DNA of 5,799 bases from a virus (Duplodnaviria > Heunggongvirae > Uroviricota > Caudoviricetes): IMG/VR virus record IMGVR_UViG_2698536681_000012, one strand, 5' to 3'. Below, one piece after another: positions 1 through 5,799 of this stretch. Position 1 is the stretch's first letter. Every line of letters begins with the position of its first letter. Both the position numbers and the translations under genes were made by a program. The notes beneath the pieces were generated by a model. It saw only the letters and a program-made list of their open reading frames with translations, was not told the DNA's origin and did no database searches.

Positions 1-4
1 CGAA

Positions 5-250
5 TTACCGTCTTATATCACTGGCGCTGACATAGCGGTACCCTTCACGCCAGACATGGTTTAACGCTCTGCATGCTGCGGCAATAATGTCCCGGCTGTC
101 CTGTGTGGGCAATGGAAGCTTTTCCACAGCGGCATTGCTGTAACAGGGTTCTTTTACTGCAAAGGGGGATGTCCGTACAAATGTCGTCACCTGCCGGCAA
201 TACTGACGCTCCCCACGTAGTTTCTCTGCGGCCCGCTCTGCATACTGAAC
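5..250 (-). CDS. umuC: Y-family translesion DNA polymerase subunit (UmuC/MucB/ImpB family), partial; probably truncated or decayed
   Basis: Minus-strand translation VQYAERAAEKLRGERQYCRQVTTFVRTSPFAVKEPCYSNAAVEKLPLPTQDSRDIIAAACRALNHVWREGYRY aligns with E. coli UmuC around residues 265-340 (...SYAARAAEKLRSEHQYCRFISTFIKTSPFALNEPYYGNSASVKLLTPTQDSRDIIAATRSLDAIWQAGHRY..., recalled from memory). After YRY the similarity is lost (VSASDIRR) and a TAA stop follows at 5-7, about 70 codons before a full-length UmuC would end. The 5' part is hidden in the N-run 251-812. Confidence 0.8.
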   Translation of the reverse strand, partial: VQYAERAAEKLRGERQYCRQVTTFVRTSPFAVKEPCYSNAAVEKLPLPTQDSRDIIAAACRALNHVWREGYRYVSASDIRR

Positions 251-813
251 NNNNNNNNNNNNNNNNNNNNNNNNNNNNNNNNNNNNNNNNNNNNNNNNNN
301 NNNNNNNNNNNNNNNNNNNNNNNNNNNNNNNNNNNNNNNNNNNNNNNNNNNNNNNNNNNNNNNNNNNNNNNNNNNNNNNNNNNNNNNNNNNNNNNNNNNN
401 NNNNNNNNNNNNNNNNNNNNNNNNNNNNNNNNNNNNNNNNNNNNNNNNNNNNNNNNNNNNNNNNNNNNNNNNNNTTTNNNNNNNNNNNNNNNNNNNNNNN
501 NNNNNNNNNNNNNNNNNNNNNNNNNNNNNNNNNNNNNNNNNNNNNNNNNNNNNNNNNNNNNNNNNNNNNNNNNNNNNNNNNNNNNNNNNNNNNNNNNNNN
601 NNNNNNNNNNNNNNNNNNNNNNNNNNNNNNNNNNNNNNNNNNNNNNNNNNNNNNNNNNNNNNNNNNNNNNNNNNNNNNNNNNNNNNNNNNNNNNNNNNNN
701 NNNNNNNNNNNNNNNNNNNNNNNNNNNNNNNNNNNNNNNNNNNNNNNNNNNNNNNNNNNNNNNNNNNNNNNNNNNNNNNNNNNNNNNNNNNNNNNNNNNN
801 NNNNNNNNNNNNA

Positions 814-1089
814 GATGTTTTCCGGATACAGTGTGCGGAACTCCGGGCTGTCTGAAACCGGCTCCAGTGCCGGGCGTGGGCGCAACAGCAGTCGTTTGAC
901 GGTGAACTCACCGTCGATCTCAGCGATAACGATGTCCCCGTGTTGTGGTTTTTCGGCCCTGTCCACTACCAGCAGATCACCATTCTGCACGCCAGCCTGG
1001 TTCATCGATTCACCGCTGGCGCGCAGAAAGAAGGTGGCTGCAGGTCTGCTGATGCAATAGCTGTTCAGATCCAGTTCCTGCTCAGCATA
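814..1089 (-). CDS. umuD: UmuD/MucA/ImpA-like LexA-family S24 autopeptidase (polymerase V accessory subunit), internal fragment; both ends hidden in N-runs
   Basis: Minus-strand translation YAEQELDLNSYCISRPAATFFLRASGESMNQAGVQNGDLLVVDRAEKPQHGDIVIAEIDGEFTVKRLLLRPRPALEPVSDSPEFRTLYPENI matches E. coli UmuD residues ~32-123 (from memory), including the catalytic Ser in ASGESM and the Lys in FTVKRL. It lies upstream of the UmuC-like fragment on the same strand. Confidence 0.85.
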
Positions 1090-1328
1090 NNNNNNNNNNN
1101 NNNNNNNNNNNNNNNNNNNNNNNNNNNNNNNNNNNNNNNNNNNNNNNNNNNNNNNNNNNNNNNNNNNNNNNNNNNNNNNNNNNNNNNNNNNNNNNNNNNN
1201 NNNNNNNNNNNNNNNNNNNNNNNNNNNNNNNNNNNNNNNNNNNNNNNNNNNNNNNNNNNNNNNNNNNNNNNNNNNNNNNNNNNNNNNNNNNNNNNNNNNN
1301 NNNNNNNNNNNNNNNNNNNNNNNNNNNN

Positions 1329-1387
1329 GTGCCTGATTTGAGGTTTTTTGTGCTCTGGCGGTCGAAAAGAATTTCAATGCGGATCAT
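1329..1387 (-). CDS. N-terminal 19 codons of a small gene preceding the umuD-like gene (position and SOS control resemble impC of impCAB operons); rest hidden in N-run
   Basis: Minus-strand ATG (plus 1385-1387) is preceded by GGGAGA about 7 nt upstream and translates MIRIEILFDRQSTKNLKSG. It sits immediately downstream of the LexA box and promoter. I cannot verify identity to ImpC from memory. Confidence 0.5.
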
Positions 1388-1411
1388 GTTCTCATCTCCC
1401 TTTTCTTTATG

Positions 1412-1427
1412 CTGTATGTTTATACAG
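1412..1427 (-). promoter_or_regulatory. LexA operator (SOS box), canonical 16-bp CTGT-N8-ACAG
   Basis: Plus strand CTGTATGTTTATACAG is a perfect match to the CTGT-N8-ACAG architecture with an AT-rich core. It lies between the -10 element and the RBS of the minus-strand small gene, the classic arrangement for umuDC-type operons. Confidence 0.8.
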
Positions 1428-1428
1428 T

Positions 1429-1458
1429 ATTCTAATAACTGAATCCGCACACAGTCAA
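1429..1458 (-). promoter_or_regulatory. sigma70-type promoter for the minus-strand SOS operon (-35 TTGACT, 18-nt spacer, -10 TAGAAT)
   Basis: Reverse complement of 1453-1458 is TTGACT and of 1429-1434 is TAGAAT, with an 18-nt spacer. The LexA box abuts the -10 element. Confidence 0.6.
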
Positions 1459-1796
1459 ATGTCATNNNNNNNNNNNNNNNNNNNNNNNNNNNNNNNNNNN
1501 NNNNNNNNNNNNNNNNNNNNNNNNNNNNNNNNNNNNNNNNNNNNNNNNNNNNNNNNNNNNNNNNNNNNNNNNNNNNNNNNNNNNNNNNNNNNNNNNNNNN
1601 NNNNNNNNNNNNNNNNNNNNNNNNNNNNNNNNNNNNNNNNNNNNNNNNNNNNNNNNNNNNNNNNNNNNNNNNNNNNNNNNNNNNNNNNNNNNNNNNNNNN
1701 NNNNNNNNNNNNNNNNNNNNNNNNNNNNNNNNNNNNNNNNNNNNNNNNNNNNNNNNNNNNNNNNNNNNNNNNNNNNNNNNNNNNNNNNTTCTTTTG

Positions 1797-1814
1797 CTGT
1801 ATATATATATACAG
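1797..1814 (-). promoter_or_regulatory. LexA-box-like palindrome with non-canonical spacing, CTGT-(AT)5-ACAG, 18 bp
   Basis: CTGTATATATATATACAG has the conserved CTGT/ACAG half-sites but 10 nt between them instead of 8. It is followed by the same -10 and -35 hexamers (plus 1816-1821 and 1840-1845) as the first copy. Function is uncertain because LexA binding is spacing sensitive. Confidence 0.4.
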
Positions 1815-1852
1815 TATTCTAATAACTGAATCCGCACACAGTCAAATGTCAT
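1797..1852. repeat. Direct repeat copy 2 (LexA-like box plus promoter module), about 385-387 nt from copy 1
   Basis: Identical 38-mer plus a box variant; see copy 1. Confidence 0.85.
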
Positions 1853-1899
1853 TGTTCTGACTAAAAAACGCTCAATTCTCTGAGGGTATGGCTGTATGC

Positions 1900-2140
1900 C
1901 TGCTGTGGAGTGCTGTGTCCAGCTTATCCACAGCATTTTGTGCACGGTTCTGTGGACAAAATACCTGGTTACCCAGGCCGTGCCGGCACGTTAACCGGGC
2001 TGCATCCGATGCAAGTGTGTCGCTGTCGCCGGCCTCCTCACCCGGTCACGTTTCGTCGTTCCTCCTCCACGCGCTGCGGCTTCGGGGCCGCACCTGCATT
2101 CGTATGCGGTCGCCCGGTAACAGGTGCGGCACGGCCTGAT
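1900..2140 (+). promoter_or_regulatory. GC-rich region with nested inverted repeats (long imperfect hairpin) upstream of the plus-strand operon; candidate single-strand promoter (Frpo/ssi-like) or other structured leader
   Basis: 1974-1985 CAGGCCGTGCCG is the exact reverse complement of 2127-2138 CGGCACGGCCTG. The flanks pair imperfectly (GTTAACCGGG near 1990-1999 against CCCGGTAAC near 2112-2120; TGCATCCGATGCA near 2001-2013 against GCATTCGTATGC near 2095-2106). Local hairpins are at 1903-1933 (CTGTGGA/TCCACAG), 1964-1977 (CCTGG-TTAC-CCAGG), 1979-1990 (palindrome CGTGCCGGCACG) and 2076-2091. The region has no convincing ORF with an RBS and ends at the RBS of the gene starting at 2169. Confidence 0.4.
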
Positions 2141-2168
2141 GGAGGCCGCATGTGAGAGGAGAATTCCC

Positions 2169-2622
2169 ATGCCAAACTGGTGCTCGAATCGTATGTATTT
2201 TTCTGGTGAACCGGCACAGATCGCTGAGATTAAACGACTGGCCAGCGGTGCAGTTACACCGCTTTATCGCCGCGCCACAAATGAAGGTATTCAGCTGTTT
2301 CTGGCCGGAAGTGCCGGACTTCTGCAGATCACTGAAAATATCCGCTCTGAGCAGTGCCCCGGAGTGACGGCTGCCGGACGTGGTGCTGTATCACCGGAAA
2401 ATATCGCGTTCACCCGCTGGCTGACACACCTGCAGAACGGTGTACTGCTGGATGAGCAAAACTGCCTGATGCTGCATGAACTCTGGCTGCAGAGCGGTAC
2501 TGGACAGCGTCGCTGGGAAGAGTTACCGGATGATGTCAGGGAAACTATCACTGTGCATTTCACCGCAAAAAGAGGTGACTGGTGTGGCTTCTGGAGTAAC
2601 GAGGATGTATCGGTGTGGTGGA
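2169..2622 (+). CDS. Hypothetical protein, paralogue A (N-terminal 151 codons visible; continues into N-run)
   Basis: ATG at 2169 with a strong RBS GAGAGGAG (2154-2161, 7-nt spacing). Open frame with enterobacterial-like codon usage, translating MPNWCSNRMYFSGEPAQIAEIKRLASGAVTPLYRRATNEGIQLFLAGSAGLLQITENIRSEQCPG... I do not recognise the family. Confidence 0.8.
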
Positions 2623-3055
2623 NNNNNNNNNNNNNNNNNNNNNNNNNNNNNNNNNNNNNNNNNNNNNNNNNNNNNNNNNNNNNNNNNNNNNNNNNNNNNN
2701 NNNNNNNNNNNNNNNNNNNNNNNNNNNNNNNNNNNNNNNNNNNNNNNNNNNNNNNNNNNNNNNNNNNNNNNNNNNNNNNNNNNNNNNNNNNNNNNNNNNN
2801 NNNNNNNNNNNNNNNNNNNNNNNNNNNNNNNNNNNNNNNNNNNNNNNNNNNNNNNNNNNNNNNNNNNNNNNNNNNNNNNNNNNNNNNNNNNNNNNNNNNN
2901 NNNNNNNNNNNNNNNNNNNNNNNNNNNNNNNNNNNNNNNNNNNNNNNNNNNNNNNNNNNNNNNNNNNNNNNNNNNNNNNNNNNNNNNNNNNNNNNNNNNN
3001 NNNNNNNNNNNNNNNNNNNNNNNNNNNNNNNNNNNNNNNNNNNNNNNNNNNNNNN

Positions 3056-3178
3056 TGGCCAGTGGTGCCGTCACACCGTTTTATCGCCGCGCCACAAATG
3101 AAGGTATTCAGCTGTTTCTGGCCGGAAGTGCCGGACTTCTGCAGACCACTGAAGATGTGTGGTTTGAACCGTGCCCCG
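3056..3178 (+). CDS. Hypothetical protein, paralogue B (internal fragment homologous to paralogue A residues ~25-64); both ends in N-runs
   Basis: 3080-3145 is 66 nt identical to 2263-2328, with about 85% identity over about 110 nt. In-frame translation ASGAVTPFYRRATNEGIQLFLAGSAGLLQTTEDVWFEPCP parallels paralogue A. The copy offset of 817 nt places a start near 2986, inside the N-run. Confidence 0.65.
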
Positions 3179-3475
3179 NNNNNNNNNNNNNNNNNNNNNN
3201 NNNNNNNNNNNNNNNNNNNNNNNNNNNNNNNNNNNNNNNNNNNNNNNNNNNNNNNNNNNNNNNNNNNNNNNNNNNNNNNNNNNNNNNNNNNNNNNNNNNN
3301 NNNNNNNNNNNNNNNNNNNNNNNNNNNNNNNNNNNNNNNNNNNNNNNNNNNNNNNNNNNNNNNNNNNNNNNNNNNNNNNNNNNNNNNNNNNNNNNNNNNN
3401 NNNNNNNNNNNNNNNNNNNNNNNNNNNNNNNNNNNNNNNNNNNNNNNNNNNNNNNNNNNNNNNNNNNNNNNNNNN

Positions 3476-3742
3476 TTCATTCAGGTTGATTTCGACACGC
3501 CGTGGTGTCAGCCGGAAAGCGACGTTATTGCAGAATTAAGCCGCCGTTTCAGCTGCACGCTGGAGCACTGGTATGCCGAACAGGGCTGTGATTTCTGTGG
3601 CTGGCAGTTGTATGAGCGCGGAGAGCTCGTTGATGTGCTGTGGGGGGAACTGGAATGGTCTTCCCCGACAGATGATGATGAGCTGCCGGAAGTCACCGGA
3701 CCTGCGTGGATAATCGACAATGTGGCGCATTATGGCGGATGA
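3476..3742 (+). CDS. C-terminal 88 codons of a hypothetical Cys-containing protein with an acidic tail (possibly the C-terminus of paralogue B, but in a different frame from 3056-3178)
   Basis: Open frame to TGA at 3740-3742, translating FIQVDFDTPWCQPESDVIAELSRRFSCTLEHWYAEQGCDFCGWQLYERGELVDVLWGELEWSSPTDDDELPEVTGPAWIIDNVAHYGG. Codon usage is good and the next gene starts 3 nt downstream. Confidence 0.7.
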   Translation, partial: FIQVDFDTPWCQPESDVIAELSRRFSCTLEHWYAEQGCDFCGWQLYERGELVDVLWGELEWSSPTDDDELPEVTGPAWIIDNVAHYGG

Positions 3743-3745
3743 AGT

Positions 3746-4954
3746 ATGACGGAGACGGGCGGGCAACCGCNNNNNNNNNNNNNNNNNNNNNNNNNNNNNN
3801 NNNNNNNNNNNNNNNNNNNNNNNNNNNNNNNNNNNNNNNNNNNNNNNNNNNNNNNNNNNNNNNNNNNNNNNNNNNNNNNNNNNNNNNNNNNNNNNNNNNN
3901 NNNNNNNNNNNNNNNNNNNNNNNNNNNNNNNNNNNNNNNNNNNNNNNNNNNNNNNNNNNNNNNNNNNNNNNNNNNNNNNNNNNNNNNNNNNNNNNNNNNN
4001 NNNNNNNNNNNNNNNNNNNNNNNNNNNNNNNNNNNNNNNNNNNNNNNNNNNNNNNNNNNNNNNNNNNNNNNNNGTCGGCCTGACCCGTTACCGGACGCGG
4101 TGAACAGCCCACAGGCAGCGGGGAACGGGCACCACAGGGGTGCCCTCCCGNNNNNNNNNNNNNNNNNNNNNNNNNNNNNNNNNNNNNNNNNNNNNNNNNN
4201 NNNNNNNNNNNNNNNNNNNNNNNNNNNNNNNNNNNNNNNNNNNNNNNNNNNNNNNNNNNNNNNNNNNNNNNNNNNNNNNNNNNNNNNNNNNNNNNNNNNN
4301 NNNNNNNNNNNNNNNNNNNNNNNNNNNNNNNNNNNNNNNNNNNNNNNNNNNNNNNNNNNNNNNNNNNNNNNNNNNNNNNNNNNNNNNNNNNNNNNNNNNN
4401 NNNNNNNNNNNNNNNNNNNNNNNNNNNNNNNNNNNNNNNNNNNNNNNNNNNNNNNNNNNNNNNNNNNNNNNNNNNNNNNNNNNNNNNNNNNNNNNNNNNN
4501 NNNNNNNNNNNNNNNNNNNTGGAAAAATGCGGGATTCAGCGTTGTTGGTCACCTGGTCTTCACCAAAAACTACACATCGAAGGCCGCATATGTGGGCTAT
4601 CGCCACGAATGCGCCTACATCCTGGCAAAAGGCCGTCCACGTCTGCCACAAAACCCGCTGCCGGACGTGCTGGGCTGGAAATATTCGGGCAATCGCCATC
4701 ACCCGACGGAAAAGCCCGTTACCAGCCTGCAACCGCTGATTGAGAACTTCACACACCCGAACGCAATTGTGCTGGACCCGTTTGCAGGCAGCGGCTCAAC
4801 CTGCGTCGCCGCCCTCCAGTCCGGACGCCGGTATATCGGTATCGAGCTGCTTGAGCAGTATCACCGTGCCGGGCAGCAACGCCTTGCCGCCGTGCAACGG
4901 GCCATGCAGCAGGGGGCCGCGAATGATGACTGGTTTATGCCGGAGGCTGCGTAA
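3746..4954 (+). CDS. DNA methyltransferase, beta-class N6-adenine/N4-cytosine type (PF01555-like); C-terminal catalytic region visible, N-terminal extent uncertain
   Basis: The visible C-terminal 144 codons (4520-4951) contain HPTEKP followed about 20 residues later by DPFAGSGST (the FxGxG AdoMet-binding motif), then RRYIGIE, an arrangement typical of beta-class amino-MTases such as CcrM. ATG at 3746 gives a 402-codon frame if the N-runs are length-faithful; the visible island 4074-4150 is open only in this frame. Alternatively the MTase starts inside the N-run 4151-4519 and 3746 begins a separate short gene. Confidence 0.8.
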   Translation: MTETGGQPXXXXXXXXXXXXXXXXXXXXXXXXXXXXXXXXXXXXXXXXXXXXXXXXXXXXXXXXXXXXXXXXXXXXXXXXXXXXXXXXXXXXXXXXXXXXXXXXXXXXXXRPDPLPDAVNSPQAAGNGHHRGALPXXXXXXXXXXXXXXXXXXXXXXXXXXXXXXXXXXXXXXXXXXXXXXXXXXXXXXXXXXXXXXXXXXXXXXXXXXXXXXXXXXXXXXXXXXXXXXXXXXXXXXXXXXXXXXXXXXXXXXXXXXXWKNAGFSVVGHLVFTKNYTSKAAYVGYRHECAYILAKGRPRLPQNPLPDVLGWKYSGNRHHPTEKPVTSLQPLIENFTHPNAIVLDPFAGSGSTCVAALQSGRRYIGIELLEQYHRAGQQRLAAVQRAMQQGAANDDWFMPEAA

Positions 4955-5176
4955 ATGAACTATGCAGGACACGAAAAACTGCGCGCCGAAGTGGCGGAGG
5001 TGGCCAATGCCATGTGCGACCTGCGTACAACCATGAATGAGATGGAGCAGCGGTACAGCTTTAATGCCGACACCCTGCCGGAACGTCTGGTGCGTCAGAC
5101 GCTGTTTCGCGCAAACCGCCTCCTGATGGAGGCATATACCGAAATTCTGGAACTGGAAGCGTGCTTCAAAGATTGA
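4955..5176 (+). CDS. Small hypothetical protein (73 aa), translationally coupled to the methyltransferase
   Basis: ATG at 4955 directly follows the MTase TAA (TAAATG at 4952-4957), with GGAGG 9 nt upstream. Fully visible ORF MNYAGHEKLRAEVAEVANAMCDLRTTMNEMEQRYSFNADTLPERLVRQTLFRANRLLMEAYTEILELEACFKD; stop TGA at 5174-5176. Predicted mostly helical. No recognised family. Confidence 0.7.
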   Translation: MNYAGHEKLRAEVAEVANAMCDLRTTMNEMEQRYSFNADTLPERLVRQTLFRANRLLMEAYTEILELEACFKD

Positions 5177-5189
5177 GAAGGAGACGAGA

Positions 5190-5242
5190 ATGTACGGAAC
5201 ATGCGAAACGCTATGCCGGGAGCTGGCAGTAAAGTATCCGGG
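5190..5242 (+). CDS. Start of a hypothetical gene (first 17 codons visible; continues into N-run)
   Basis: ATG at 5190 with RBS AAGGAG 8 nt upstream, 13 nt after the previous stop. Translates MYGTCETLCRELAVKYPG. Confidence 0.55.
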
Positions 5243-5487
5243 NNNNNNNNNNNNNNNNNNNNNNNNNNNNNNNNNNNNNNNNNNNNNNNNNNNNNNNNNN
5301 NNNNNNNNNNNNNNNNNNNNNNNNNNNNNNNNNNNNNNNNNNNNNNNNNNNNNNNNNNNNNNNNNNNNNNNNNNNNNNNNNNNNNNNNNNNNNNNNNNNN
5401 NNNNNNNNNNNNNNNNNNNNNNNNNNNNNNNNNNNNNNNNNNNNNNNNNNNNNNNNNNNNNNNNNNNNNNNNNNNNNNNNNNNNNNN

Positions 5488-5799
5488 GGCGTGGCGATGG
5501 AGATCATCAATAACGTGAGAGAAAACCGCCAGGTGACCGTCCCTGCTGAACTGCTGGCGTCCCTGATTCAGACCGCTGAACAGGCATTGTGGAANAAGAC
5601 GAAATCAGGGCAGTTCTTGATGCGGTGCACGATGCGGTACGCAGTGTCAGTTGCCGGGTGGCAGAAGATGCGCGGCGTATCAGGGCGGCGCTGACCACAA
5701 CCGGTCAGACGTTGCTGACCCGCCAGACGCGCCGCTTTCGCCTGGTTGTGAAGGAAAGCGATCACCCCTGCTGGCTCGATGAAGACGACGAAAACCTGC
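5488..5799 (+). CDS. Hypothetical protein, partial; apparent frame break at the ambiguous base 5595; runs off the window end
   Basis: 5488-5594 reads as coding in one frame (..[34 protein letters not shown]). From 5595 the protein-like frame is shifted by one ([68 protein letters not shown], open to the window end), while the original frame turns Arg/Gly/Trp-rich and stops at 5694. May be the same gene as 5190 or a separate one. Confidence 0.5.

Follow-up and report, generated by a model that had tools for sequence, protein, structure and literature searches.

What is a compact run of mostly uncharacterized genes, all on one strand, doing beside an SOS mutagenesis operon and behind a structured leader? 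The question is raised by positions 2169–5799 of a 5,799-nucleotide (nt) stretch of DNA that is recorded in IMG/VR as viral (Caudoviricetes; IMGVR_UViG_2698536681_000012); we call the whole stretch the window, and positions and strands refer to it unless another record is named. An earlier note, made from the letters without database searches, had read the array as a single operon of five to seven genes and had likened it to the plasmid leading-region islands that encode counter-defence functions. Judged by its sequence relationships, the window is the end of a leading region distal to the origin of transfer (oriT), in a conjugative plasmid of the IncI1/IncK/IncF type (Inc, incompatibility group), and we are confident that the array is the distal part of an establishment and anti-restriction island common to IncI1, IncIgamma/K, IncK/Z and IncF plasmids. 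The likeness to a counter-defence island was borne out by synteny in four Inc types and by the near-identity of the methylase to M.EcoGIX, and what it points to is a published locus and not a new candidate: M.EcoGIX was described in 2014 and 2020, islands bounded by umuCD homologues in 2024 and single-strand promoters in 2025. What our analysis brings to this locus is mainly a reading of the leader ahead of its first gene, DUF1281, as a diverged member of a known family of hairpin promoters.

The window matches the oriT-distal end of a plasmid leading region

We compared the window with closed plasmids of four Inc types: IncIgamma/K1 (L001 and L002), the IncI1 plasmid pESBL-EA11 (L003, hereafter pESBL), IncK2/Z (L004) and F (L006). 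In these relatives the gene order runs from the partition genes through impB-impA-impC (on the opposite strand), DUF1281, a structured spacer of ~385 nt, a methylase of 227 amino acids, YubE (73 amino acids), DUF1380, YchA/YffA (258 amino acids) and the KlcA/ArdB antirestriction protein to ssb, a ParB-like gene, psiB, psiA and ardA, after which comes oriT with nikAB (traM in F); the imp operon is absent from L002 and from F. The span that corresponds to positions 2169–5799 holds five genes (DUF1281, the methylase, YubE, DUF1380 and YchA) and one doubtful open reading frame (ORF), the earlier count of five to seven having been inflated by scaffold artefacts that we describe below. The array has the orientation of ardA, psiB, ssb and klcA, opposite to that of the imp (umuDC-like) operon. 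It points towards oriT and starts 13–16 kb from oriT/nikAB (IncI) or oriT/traM (F), distances that were measured in the relatives, the window itself having no oriT.

The leading-region anti-defence islands described by Samuel et al. (Nature 2024, PMC11541004) have oriT at one end and umuCD homologues in opposite orientation at the other; this orientation is reported for 90% of the umu homologues. The array likewise lies between oriT and the backbone, with impCAB abutting its far side in L001 and the same position in pESBL, IncK2/Z and F; its genes are oriented with the transferred strand as template; and at least one of them, the methylase, has a demonstrated anti-defence role, its readable part being identical to M.EcoGIX of pESBL at 135 of 144 residues (93.8%). 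In the supplementary table of the same study, YchA/YffA (family 6), DUF1380 (family 7), this methylase (family 8) and DUF1281 (family 27) are among the largest of the leading-region-enriched families, and the DUF1281, DUF1380 and YchA families are marked there as uncharacterized. When placed relative to oriT and the relaxase in the closed relatives, as the earlier note had proposed, the array proved there to be neither a chromosomal or prophage region far from any oriT nor a set of well-characterized housekeeping genes.

In a comparative search, also proposed in that note, no fewer than 5000 plasmid records matched the window, their hosts being Escherichia, Salmonella, Klebsiella and Shigella; among the 5000 best plasmid records, 4021 were typed as conjugative. 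The methylase–YubE–DUF1380 segment is present in 3347 of 5426 complete E. coli genomes (62%), in up to 7 copies per genome, with 4568 of its 4624 sites (99%) on plasmids and 56 on chromosomes. These 56 sites, together with the PHROG families to which all of the genes of unknown function belong, would be in keeping with a source copy that sits on a chromosome or a phage-plasmid and plays no part in conjugation. We consider such an origin very improbable in view of the share of sites on plasmids, the conjugative typing and the imp–DUF1281–methylase synteny of the window, which is the arrangement of the plasmid backbone.

The methylase is an orphan of the M.EcoGIX type

The earlier note had recognized a DNA methyltransferase, and its C-terminus is indeed intact at 4520–4954. 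The S-adenosylmethionine-binding motif FAGSGS can be read, and the DPPY catalytic region is masked by Ns; in the relatives PF01555 and NF010253 cover the full-length protein of ~227 amino acids, which is also hit by PDLC03228. The enzyme has orphan status: its neighbours are the structured spacer, YubE, DUF1380 and YchA, and PADLOC recognizes the methylase only. Experimental deletion of M.EcoGIX, which is YfbB in R64 and YfeA in F, cut transfer by as much as 1000-fold when the recipients were proficient for EcoRI or EcoGIII (PMC4288162). The enzyme modifies single-stranded DNA to N6-methyladenine (m6A) with a relaxed SAY specificity; it is not expressed in established hosts, and its protection requires the gene to be on the entering strand (PMC7736820).

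The leader of DUF1281 groups with class 2 hairpin promoters

According to Wen et al. (2025, PMC12672017), transconjugants raise the expression of six pESBL operons by up to ~500-fold within 15 min, using hairpin promoters that are active only as single-stranded DNA (ssDNA). The paper distinguishes class 1 (ssi1-3/Frpo), class 2 (upstream of klcA and of ardA) and class 3 (5′ of M.EcoGIX, a hairpin without a counterpart), with starts mapped by 5′ RACE (rapid amplification of cDNA ends) and with classes 2 and 3 conserved in F; the promoters are named ssp1-3 in a 2026 preprint. The published classes could be recovered in L001 from sequence alone (25585–25995, 32481–32941, 27079–27846, 33443–34211 and 36689–37036): the upstream regions of klcA and ardA share 94% identity (class 2), and identity among three repeats of the ssi/Frpo type is ~80% (class 1).

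The structured leader that the earlier note had placed ahead of the array is an element that we call E1 (Table 1). E1 folds beyond shuffled sequence on either strand (z = −4.4 and −5.3) and contains a 27-nt inverted repeat (1974–2000/2112–2138). Its core shows 3 variable columns in ~220 nt across IncI1, IncIgamma/K1, IncK2/Z and F, the F copy being intact; between pESBL and F, identity is 95.8% in the leader, 95.4% in the spacer between DUF1281 and the methylase, 93.4% in DUF1281 and 87.4% in the methylase. In the F plasmid (L006, 6811–7781), yfdA (the DUF1281 gene) is split by a frameshift into two ORFs and the hairpin upstream of it is fully kept, which hints at a role of the hairpin that is independent of the protein.

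In a BLAST search with E1 within the 45-kb locus, only the two class 2 elements matched (72–74% identity over 71–73 nt, E = 4e-6 and 6e-5), and both arms of E1 align to them. Because divergence within E. coli-type plasmids was too low for a covariation analysis (>5000 records at ≥90% identity), we scanned species-representative genomes for the motif of the arms. Most of the 93 hits were chance matches in GC-rich genomes, and among the hits were diverged members of the E1/class 2 group that lie 210–290 nt upstream of klcA, ardA or DUF1281. The members linked to klcA are from Erwinia amylovora, E. typographi, Ca. E. dacicola, Entomohabitans and Klebsiella grimontii, with KlcA identity down to 36%, and the member linked to ardA is from E. 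typographi (protein 56% identical). On a Pantoea plasmid, an E1-type element stands upstream of a DUF1281 gene (37–56% identical to the E. coli protein) that is followed by a methylase gene (70%). In Pantoea sp. App145, pAPP145_3 has an E1-like hairpin ahead of a diverged DUF1281 gene and the methylase, and pAPP145_2 has the left-arm motif only, with a weak fold and no recognizable gene downstream, and may carry a decayed copy.

Arm-only constructs of 11 elements from 6 genera gave a near-gapless alignment (one 1-column adjustment). We evaluated a three-stem model of 38 pairs, for which the structure was derived from one member (the class 2 reference) and the members are related by descent: 87% of the cells were paired versus 35–40% with slid partners, 14 of the 38 pairs had changed on both sides versus 2–8 in the slid controls, and the covariation score was 0.307 versus at most 0.087 in the controls, with 0 of 500 shuffles reaching either the observed pairing or the observed score. 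On the transferred strand, every member carries TTGC(A/G)(T/A) (TCGACT in Pantoea), a spacer of exactly 15 nt, which is shorter than the sigma-70 optimum, and TAAnnT, with the boxes reading out towards the gene; the final T of the −10 box is invariant although the search pattern did not impose it. In E1 the boxes TTGCAT-15 nt-TAACGT occupy the same columns as TTGCAT-15-TAAGAT in class 2.

In the alignment, an A·C mismatch on the + strand (a G·T wobble on the transferred strand) inside the −35-like box is kept in 10 of the 11 elements (position 2014 and its right-arm partner; columns 46/78), and a GCGGCTTC motif near the loop is kept in nearly all members (GGCTTC in 10 of the 11; shifted in Pantoea). 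The plasmid unnamed3 of Alicyclobacillus fastidiosus has, at ~2279–2302, an F-type left arm of E1 that ends at a GTCGAC site and continues with GAGCTCGCGAGCTC; this copy looks like a remnant of an F-derived cloning vector or a contamination and not like a native plasmid.

By homology and covariation, then, E1 belongs, as a diverged form, to the class 2 family of hairpins (klcA/ardA, ssp2), an assignment that, like the identity and architecture of the locus and the structure of E1, comes from the present analysis. Neither E1 nor the second element described below matches the three class 1 repeats of the same plasmid (L001), and an Rfam scan of the window and of pESBL returned no family. E1 is also a candidate active promoter, judging from its boxes, and would start transcription at ~2128–2134. 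We tentatively suggest that it could be a seventh, unlisted single-strand promoter of the IncI/IncF leading region, a short-looped form of class 2 with a range from Escherichia to Pantoea, and that DUF1281, YubE, DUF1380 and YchA could be undescribed establishment or anti-defence effectors. If this were true, the published screen would have missed E1 only through an energy just under its −75 kcal/mol cut-off, and E1 would either allow DUF1281 to be expressed zygotically in its own right or be a site of priming or a roadblock, an option that we raise because the hairpin is intact in F despite the frameshifted gene. The novelty in this may be limited to assigning the DUF1281 leader to the class 2 family, and is modest.

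A second hairpin lies directly 5′ of the methylase

The window also retains one arm of a long hairpin directly 5′ of the methylase (E2, Table 1). Positions 4074–4150 are 100% identical to pESBL, in which E2 folds on the transferred strand with z = −5.2, and F carries one compensatory pair change in the small hairpin beside the ribosome-binding site of the methylase. We replicated the published screen on pESBL (RNAfold with DNA parameters, 300-nt windows, 10-nt steps and a threshold of −75 kcal/mol), in which E2, with a minimum of −91.4 kcal/mol, was the sole pass between DUF1281 and klcA; the other minima were −84.8 kcal/mol at the klcA promoter, −101.1 kcal/mol in the ssb region and −70.5 kcal/mol at E1. 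Because E2 is the only element in the interval to pass and because it resembles no other element of the plasmid, as the paper says of class 3, we infer from its position in the replicated screen that E2 corresponds to the single-strand promoter that was published for the M.EcoGIX operon as class 3 (ssp3).

The interval between DUF1281 and the methylase holds the doubtful ORF, ORF101/103, and in the relatives the ~385-nt spacer is annotated as a hypothetical protein of ~100 amino acids. RefSeq ORFs overlie the class 3 hairpin at 3739/3746–4103 of the window and at 3895–4206 of L003, 23022–23333 of L001 and 7785–8090 of L006. The annotated starts of ORF101/103 alternate between ATGs at 3739 and 3746, and single-base indels shift the frame of its first ~40 codons between plasmids; the stretch from the DUF1281 stop to the methylase start has 98% nucleotide identity in six plasmids. 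Searches of Pfam, PHROG, NCBIfam and PADLOC gave no hit for ORF101/103. It is probably a spurious gene call and not a conserved coding gene, and what RefSeq lists as a protein in this interval is probably the hairpin of a promoter. If E2 is the class 3 promoter, DUF1281 lies ahead of the start of the methylase operon, and 3742/3746 is not a junction of two genes. The earlier note had taken the 3 nt between the TGA at 3740–3742 and the ATG at 3746 as one of three junctions that indicate co-transcription; the spacing stands, and its reading as a gene junction does not.

The array probably comprises at least two transcription units

These elements fit a mechanism in which the − strand of the window, the template strand for all genes of the array, would enter the recipient as ssDNA during conjugation. 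Long imperfect hairpins in this strand would rebuild promoter-like duplexes that the host RNA polymerase could use only while the DNA is single-stranded, and the genes would be expressed in a short burst until the complementary strand had been synthesized. E2 would drive methylase–YubE–DUF1380–YchA, and the methylase, being of the M.EcoGIX type, would place m6A on the incoming strand at relaxed SAY sites and so pre-empt the restriction enzymes of the recipient. Further upstream, DUF1281 stands behind a hairpin of its own, E1, which is related, though diverged, to the klcA and ardA promoters of class 2. The island ends at impCAB, which is under LexA control and runs in the opposite direction. 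Methylase activity, the anti-restriction role, zygotic induction and the class 3 start were established experimentally by others; any role of DUF1281, YubE, DUF1380 or YchA is putative.

The earlier note had proposed a single operon, and the array could in principle be transcribed conventionally, from a double-stranded promoter in the imp–DUF1281 intergenic region that is perhaps SOS-regulated through the shared LexA box, with the leader acting as an element of the 5′ untranslated region of the mRNA. The LexA box does lie in this divergent intergenic region, the genes downstream of the methylase follow closely on one another (0 and 13 nt), the + strand of the leader (the mRNA sense) folds as well as the − strand, and wobble asymmetry does not discriminate between the two. 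We found, however, no sigma-70-like promoter on the + strand from impC to the methylase, the sole consensus match being the imp promoter on the − strand; the TTGCAT-15-TAAnnT boxes are on the transferred strand and oriented towards the gene. No Rfam family matches, and between DUF1281 and the methylase there is a structured spacer of 385 nt that has a promoter of its own. In established hosts M.EcoGIX is silent (PMC7736820), and Wen et al. report induction that is specific to transconjugants and decays as the DNA turns double-stranded, with a start at the hairpin 5′ of M.EcoGIX. On this evidence we hold a conventional single operon to be very unlikely. The run of same-strand genes is real, all readable coding fragments of 2169–5799 being on the + strand; the class 3 promoter between DUF1281 and the methylase and the class-2-like hairpin of DUF1281 together imply at least two transcription units instead of one operon.

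Several points weigh against our reading of the array as part of an anti-restriction island with single-strand promoters. The wobble-asymmetry test on E1 did not distinguish folding of the transferred DNA strand from folding of the mRNA. We searched E2 by eye for −35 and −10 boxes and found none that was convincing. Wen et al. name six induced operons, and in the accessible part of the paper (PMC12672017) the gene upstream of M.EcoGIX is not mentioned; E1 may accordingly be weak or inactive as a promoter, since DUF1281 is omitted there. With 48% of the window being N, most gene bodies, the catalytic motif of the methylase and most of E2 are inferred from relatives. Finally, 56 of the 4624 E. 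coli sites are chromosomal, and the source of the window may carry an integrated copy.

The apparent paralogue of DUF1281 is most likely an allelic contig

The earlier note had listed two paralogues and a separate acidic, Cys-containing protein, neither of which was supported by comparison with the relatives. The acidic protein is the C-terminal PF18406 domain of DUF1281: the fragment at 3476–3742 (88 residues) aligns to the C-terminus of Hp8 of pESBL (308 amino acids). Membership in the family is supported by PF06924 and PF18406 in the proteins of L001 and L002 (E = 1e-46 and 1e-15), and DUF1281 of the window is up to 97–98% identical to database DUF1281 proteins over the full query. The second paralogue is a 123-nt duplicate of 2239–2361: the fragment at 3056–3178 maps to the same interval of pESBL as those positions. 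Its reading frame does not agree with that of the C-terminal piece, and its allele is of the L002 type, the first copy being closest to plasmids of the IncK2/Z type. Each closed plasmid that we opened has one DUF1281 gene (frameshifted in F), and in the best of ~4900 matching records the three DUF1281 pieces of the window fall within ~1334 nt, the length of a single gene copy.

A genuine tandem duplication, which would make the window a structurally new island variant with two DUF1281 paralogues and a duplicated imp promoter, would account for the two non-identical copies of DUF1281 codons 24–64 (2239–2361 and 3056–3178) and of the 63-nt segment with the LexA box, and tandem DUF1281 genes, two in number, are likewise called on a draft contig of Shigella sonnei. 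Each junction in the window, however, sits inside an N run; the offsets of the two duplications are unequal (386 versus 817 nt), the extra length of 647 nt matches neither, and the second copy is out of frame. The copies are moreover alleles of different backbones (pESBL/IncK type versus L002 type); the closed plasmids have a single copy, and the span in the best of the ~4900 records is ~1334 nt. The S. sonnei draft has N at each duplicate boundary (4367, 7143–7163, 8540 and 9945) and the methylase unit three to four times in series, and its duplication junction was not one contiguous piece in any of the closed-plasmid matches listed. Drafts very often cut DUF1281 at contig ends, as clusters of 1248 and 1786 'partial' proteins attest, and multiple co-resident copies of the segment are common. 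We judge a true duplication to be doubtful; the second paralogue is most likely an allelic contig, the alleles of co-resident plasmids having been strung in series by the scaffolder.

The S. sonnei contig (CXFL01000028.1, L005) runs at 3792–10544 through a truncated and then a full DUF1281 and then three to four repeats of methylase, YubE and a short ORF, every boundary being marked by one N or a run of them. Its serial repeats probably come from scaffolded alleles of co-resident plasmids and yield fused or truncated database 'proteins'. Draft assemblies of a multi-copy region can in this way mimic paralogues and gene fusions.

The imp promoter segment shows the same pattern. Its two copies are different alleles with the N run 1466–1788 between them, and closed plasmids have one copy. 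The second LexA box, at 1797–1814, is CTGT(AT)5ACAG, with one AT unit more than in L002. Its spacer is 10 nt against the usual 8, which, if real, might weaken LexA binding.

State of the assembly and remaining features

Only 3030 of the 5799 bases of the window are readable (48% N), and within 2169–5799 the count is 1983 of 3631 (45% N). Spacing across the N runs differs from that of every closed relative by −294 to +647 nt: the offsets are −294 and −55 nt in the imp operon, +386 nt between the imp promoter segment copies, +647 nt inside DUF1281 and then +52, +92 and +88 nt further along. Because this spacing conflicts with all closed relatives, the lengths of the N runs are, by that comparison, unreliable and without information, and ORFs that cross Ns are artefacts, as is the 402-amino-acid ORF at 3746–4954 that reads through them. 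The single N at 5595 stands in place of ~490 nt in all plasmid records inspected and fuses the middle of DUF1380 to the middle of YchA, out of frame; an exact search of species-representative genomes for this junction gave no match. The pattern of Ns looks like a short-read scaffold across a multi-copy plasmid region.

The adjacent SOS mutagenesis operon of the earlier note is present as impCAB, upstream and on the opposite strand. It is readable only at 1–250, 813–1089 and 1329–1389, and these fragments are 99–100% identical to the imp genes of pESBL, L001 and L005.

Downstream of the methylase, the small helical protein that had been noted is an intact helical ORF of 73 amino acids at 4955–5176, YubE, which belongs to phrog_4830 (unknown function) and whose homologue in L005 matches PF27407 (YubE). 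The methylase and YubE had been said to overlap at 4952–4957, where in fact they abut, TAA directly preceding ATG with a 0-nt spacer; the 13-nt junction at 5176/5190 is as described, with TGA at 5174–5176 followed by AAGGAG and the ATG at 5190. DUF1380 is PF07128 in the relatives, and YchA belongs to phrog_8919, also of unknown function. A PDB search with YubE, DUF1380 and YchA found no solved relatives. Searches of PHROG, PADLOC, NCBIfam and the PDB with these three and DUF1281 gave only families of unknown function, plus api92, which is a homologue of DUF1281 of solved structure with no assigned function (PDB 2IJR, E = 2e-43 over 254 residues, the query being the protein of a close relative). 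An AlphaFold2 model of DUF1281 from an alignment of 14 sequences had a mean pLDDT (predicted local distance difference test) of 38 and was unusable.

Table 1. Features of the window (positions 1–5799); hairpin and promoter elements are predicted.
Feature	Position	Strand	Remarks
impB / impA / impC (Y-family polymerase, UmuD-like S24 peptidase, DinI-like), SOS-mutagenesis operon	1–1389	−	outer boundary of the island
LexA box CTGTATGTTTATACAG of the imp promoter	1412–1427	.	pESBL/IncK allele
Second copy of the 63-nt imp promoter segment	1789–1851		first copy 1403–1465; L002-type allele
E1, three-stem hairpin	1969–2143	− (transferred strand)	from fold and class 2 homology
E1 basal stem	1974–1985		pairs with 2127–2138
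E1 −10-like box TAACGT	complement of 1988–1993	−	in internal bubble
E1 −35-like box TTGCAT	complement of 2009–2014	−
Shine–Dalgarno sequence GAGAGGAG	2153–2160		upstream of DUF1281
DUF1281 (Hp8/YfdA/YccB/YubB family), N-terminal 151 codons	2169–2622	+	remainder under Ns
Repeat of DUF1281 codons ~24–64	3056–3178 (123 nt)	+	different allele, 100% identical to L002-type plasmid
DUF1281 C-terminal ferredoxin-like domain	3476–3742	+	stop TGA 3740–3742; PF18406
ORF101/103 (RefSeq 'hypothetical protein'), probably spurious	3746–4103	+	first 8 and last 9 codons plus stop readable
E2, readable arm of long hairpin directly 5′ of methylase	4074–4150	−	outer-stem arm 4109–4119; small hairpin 4127–4145
M.EcoGIX-type orphan beta-class N6-adenine DNA methyltransferase, C-terminal 144 codons plus stop	4520–4954	+	FAGSGS readable
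YubE / Hp9, 73 amino acids, complete	4955–5176	+	72 of 73 amino acids identical to pESBL Hp9
DUF1380 (Hp10/YcgB/YfcB)	5190–5594	+	readable 5190–5242 and 5488–5594; breaks at N 5595
YchA / YffA (Hp11), internal fragment, codons ~113–179	5596–5799	+	frame from 5598; translation matches pESBL YchA
N runs	251–812, 1090–1328, 1466–1788, 2623–3055, 3179–3475, 3771–4073, 4151–4519, 5243–5487		plus single N at 5595

Comparison with known systems

At the level of single proteins, two parallels are available. The DUF1281 protein shares its two-domain Pfam architecture with Api92, which is encoded on a Yersinia pathogenicity island; function is assigned to neither. Solved relatives of the methylase include DpnA (PDB 5HEK and 5HFJ, E ~5e-12), which belongs to the pneumococcal DpnII system and methylates incoming ssDNA during transformation, allowing it to survive restriction. 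Both enzymes are small beta-class N6-adenine methylases, and the likeness is a functional parallel and not a close relationship: DpnA sits in a restriction-modification cassette, modifies GATC and acts in natural transformation, whereas M.EcoGIX is an orphan with a relaxed SAY context that acts in conjugation.

Among the promoters, those of class 2 (5′ of klcA and ardA in pESBL; ssp2 in F) have in common with E1 both arms, the arm lengths, the three-stem layout, the −10 box in a bubble, the TTGCAT-15 nt-TAAnnT boxes and the GCGGCTTC motif. E1 differs from them in a central loop that is ~70 nt shorter, in its ~72–74% identity on the conserved arm, in a −10 box of TAACGT instead of TAAGAT and in a folding energy of −70.5 kcal/mol, short of the published −75 kcal/mol screen. 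Class 1 promoters (Frpo of F; ssi1-3 of ColIb-P9) follow the same principle of a transferred-strand hairpin as promoter.

The closest counterpart of the whole locus is the M.EcoGIX operon of pESBL (IncI1, from E. coli O104:H4; yfbB of R64, yfeA of F), which has the same order, gene lengths and spacers as the other relatives (impCAB / Hp8 / spacer / methylase / Hp9 / Hp10 / Hp11 (YchA) / KlcA); the published gene table of pESBL gives identical genes, lengths and spacers (PMC4288162). The window is 94–100% identical to pESBL in nucleotide sequence, segment by segment. It differs in being a mosaic of alleles, with an IncK/Z-like DUF1281 and an R64/L001-like methylase, and in being half masked, with scaffold-type duplications and a hidden 490-nt gap.

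As a class, the islands of Samuel et al. share with this locus the position from oriT to a umuDC-like operon, the transferred strand as template, an orphan methylase and the enriched families; the window itself has no anti-CRISPR or toxin–antitoxin gene. The locus helps IncI, IncK and IncF resistance plasmids to establish in restriction-proficient hosts, and its importance has already been recognized and studied experimentally, so that our finding adds no new system. Four uncharacterized proteins, which are among the most abundant leading-region families, lie together in the array. Nothing essential sets the locus of the window apart from these islands, of which it is one of the most abundant instances.

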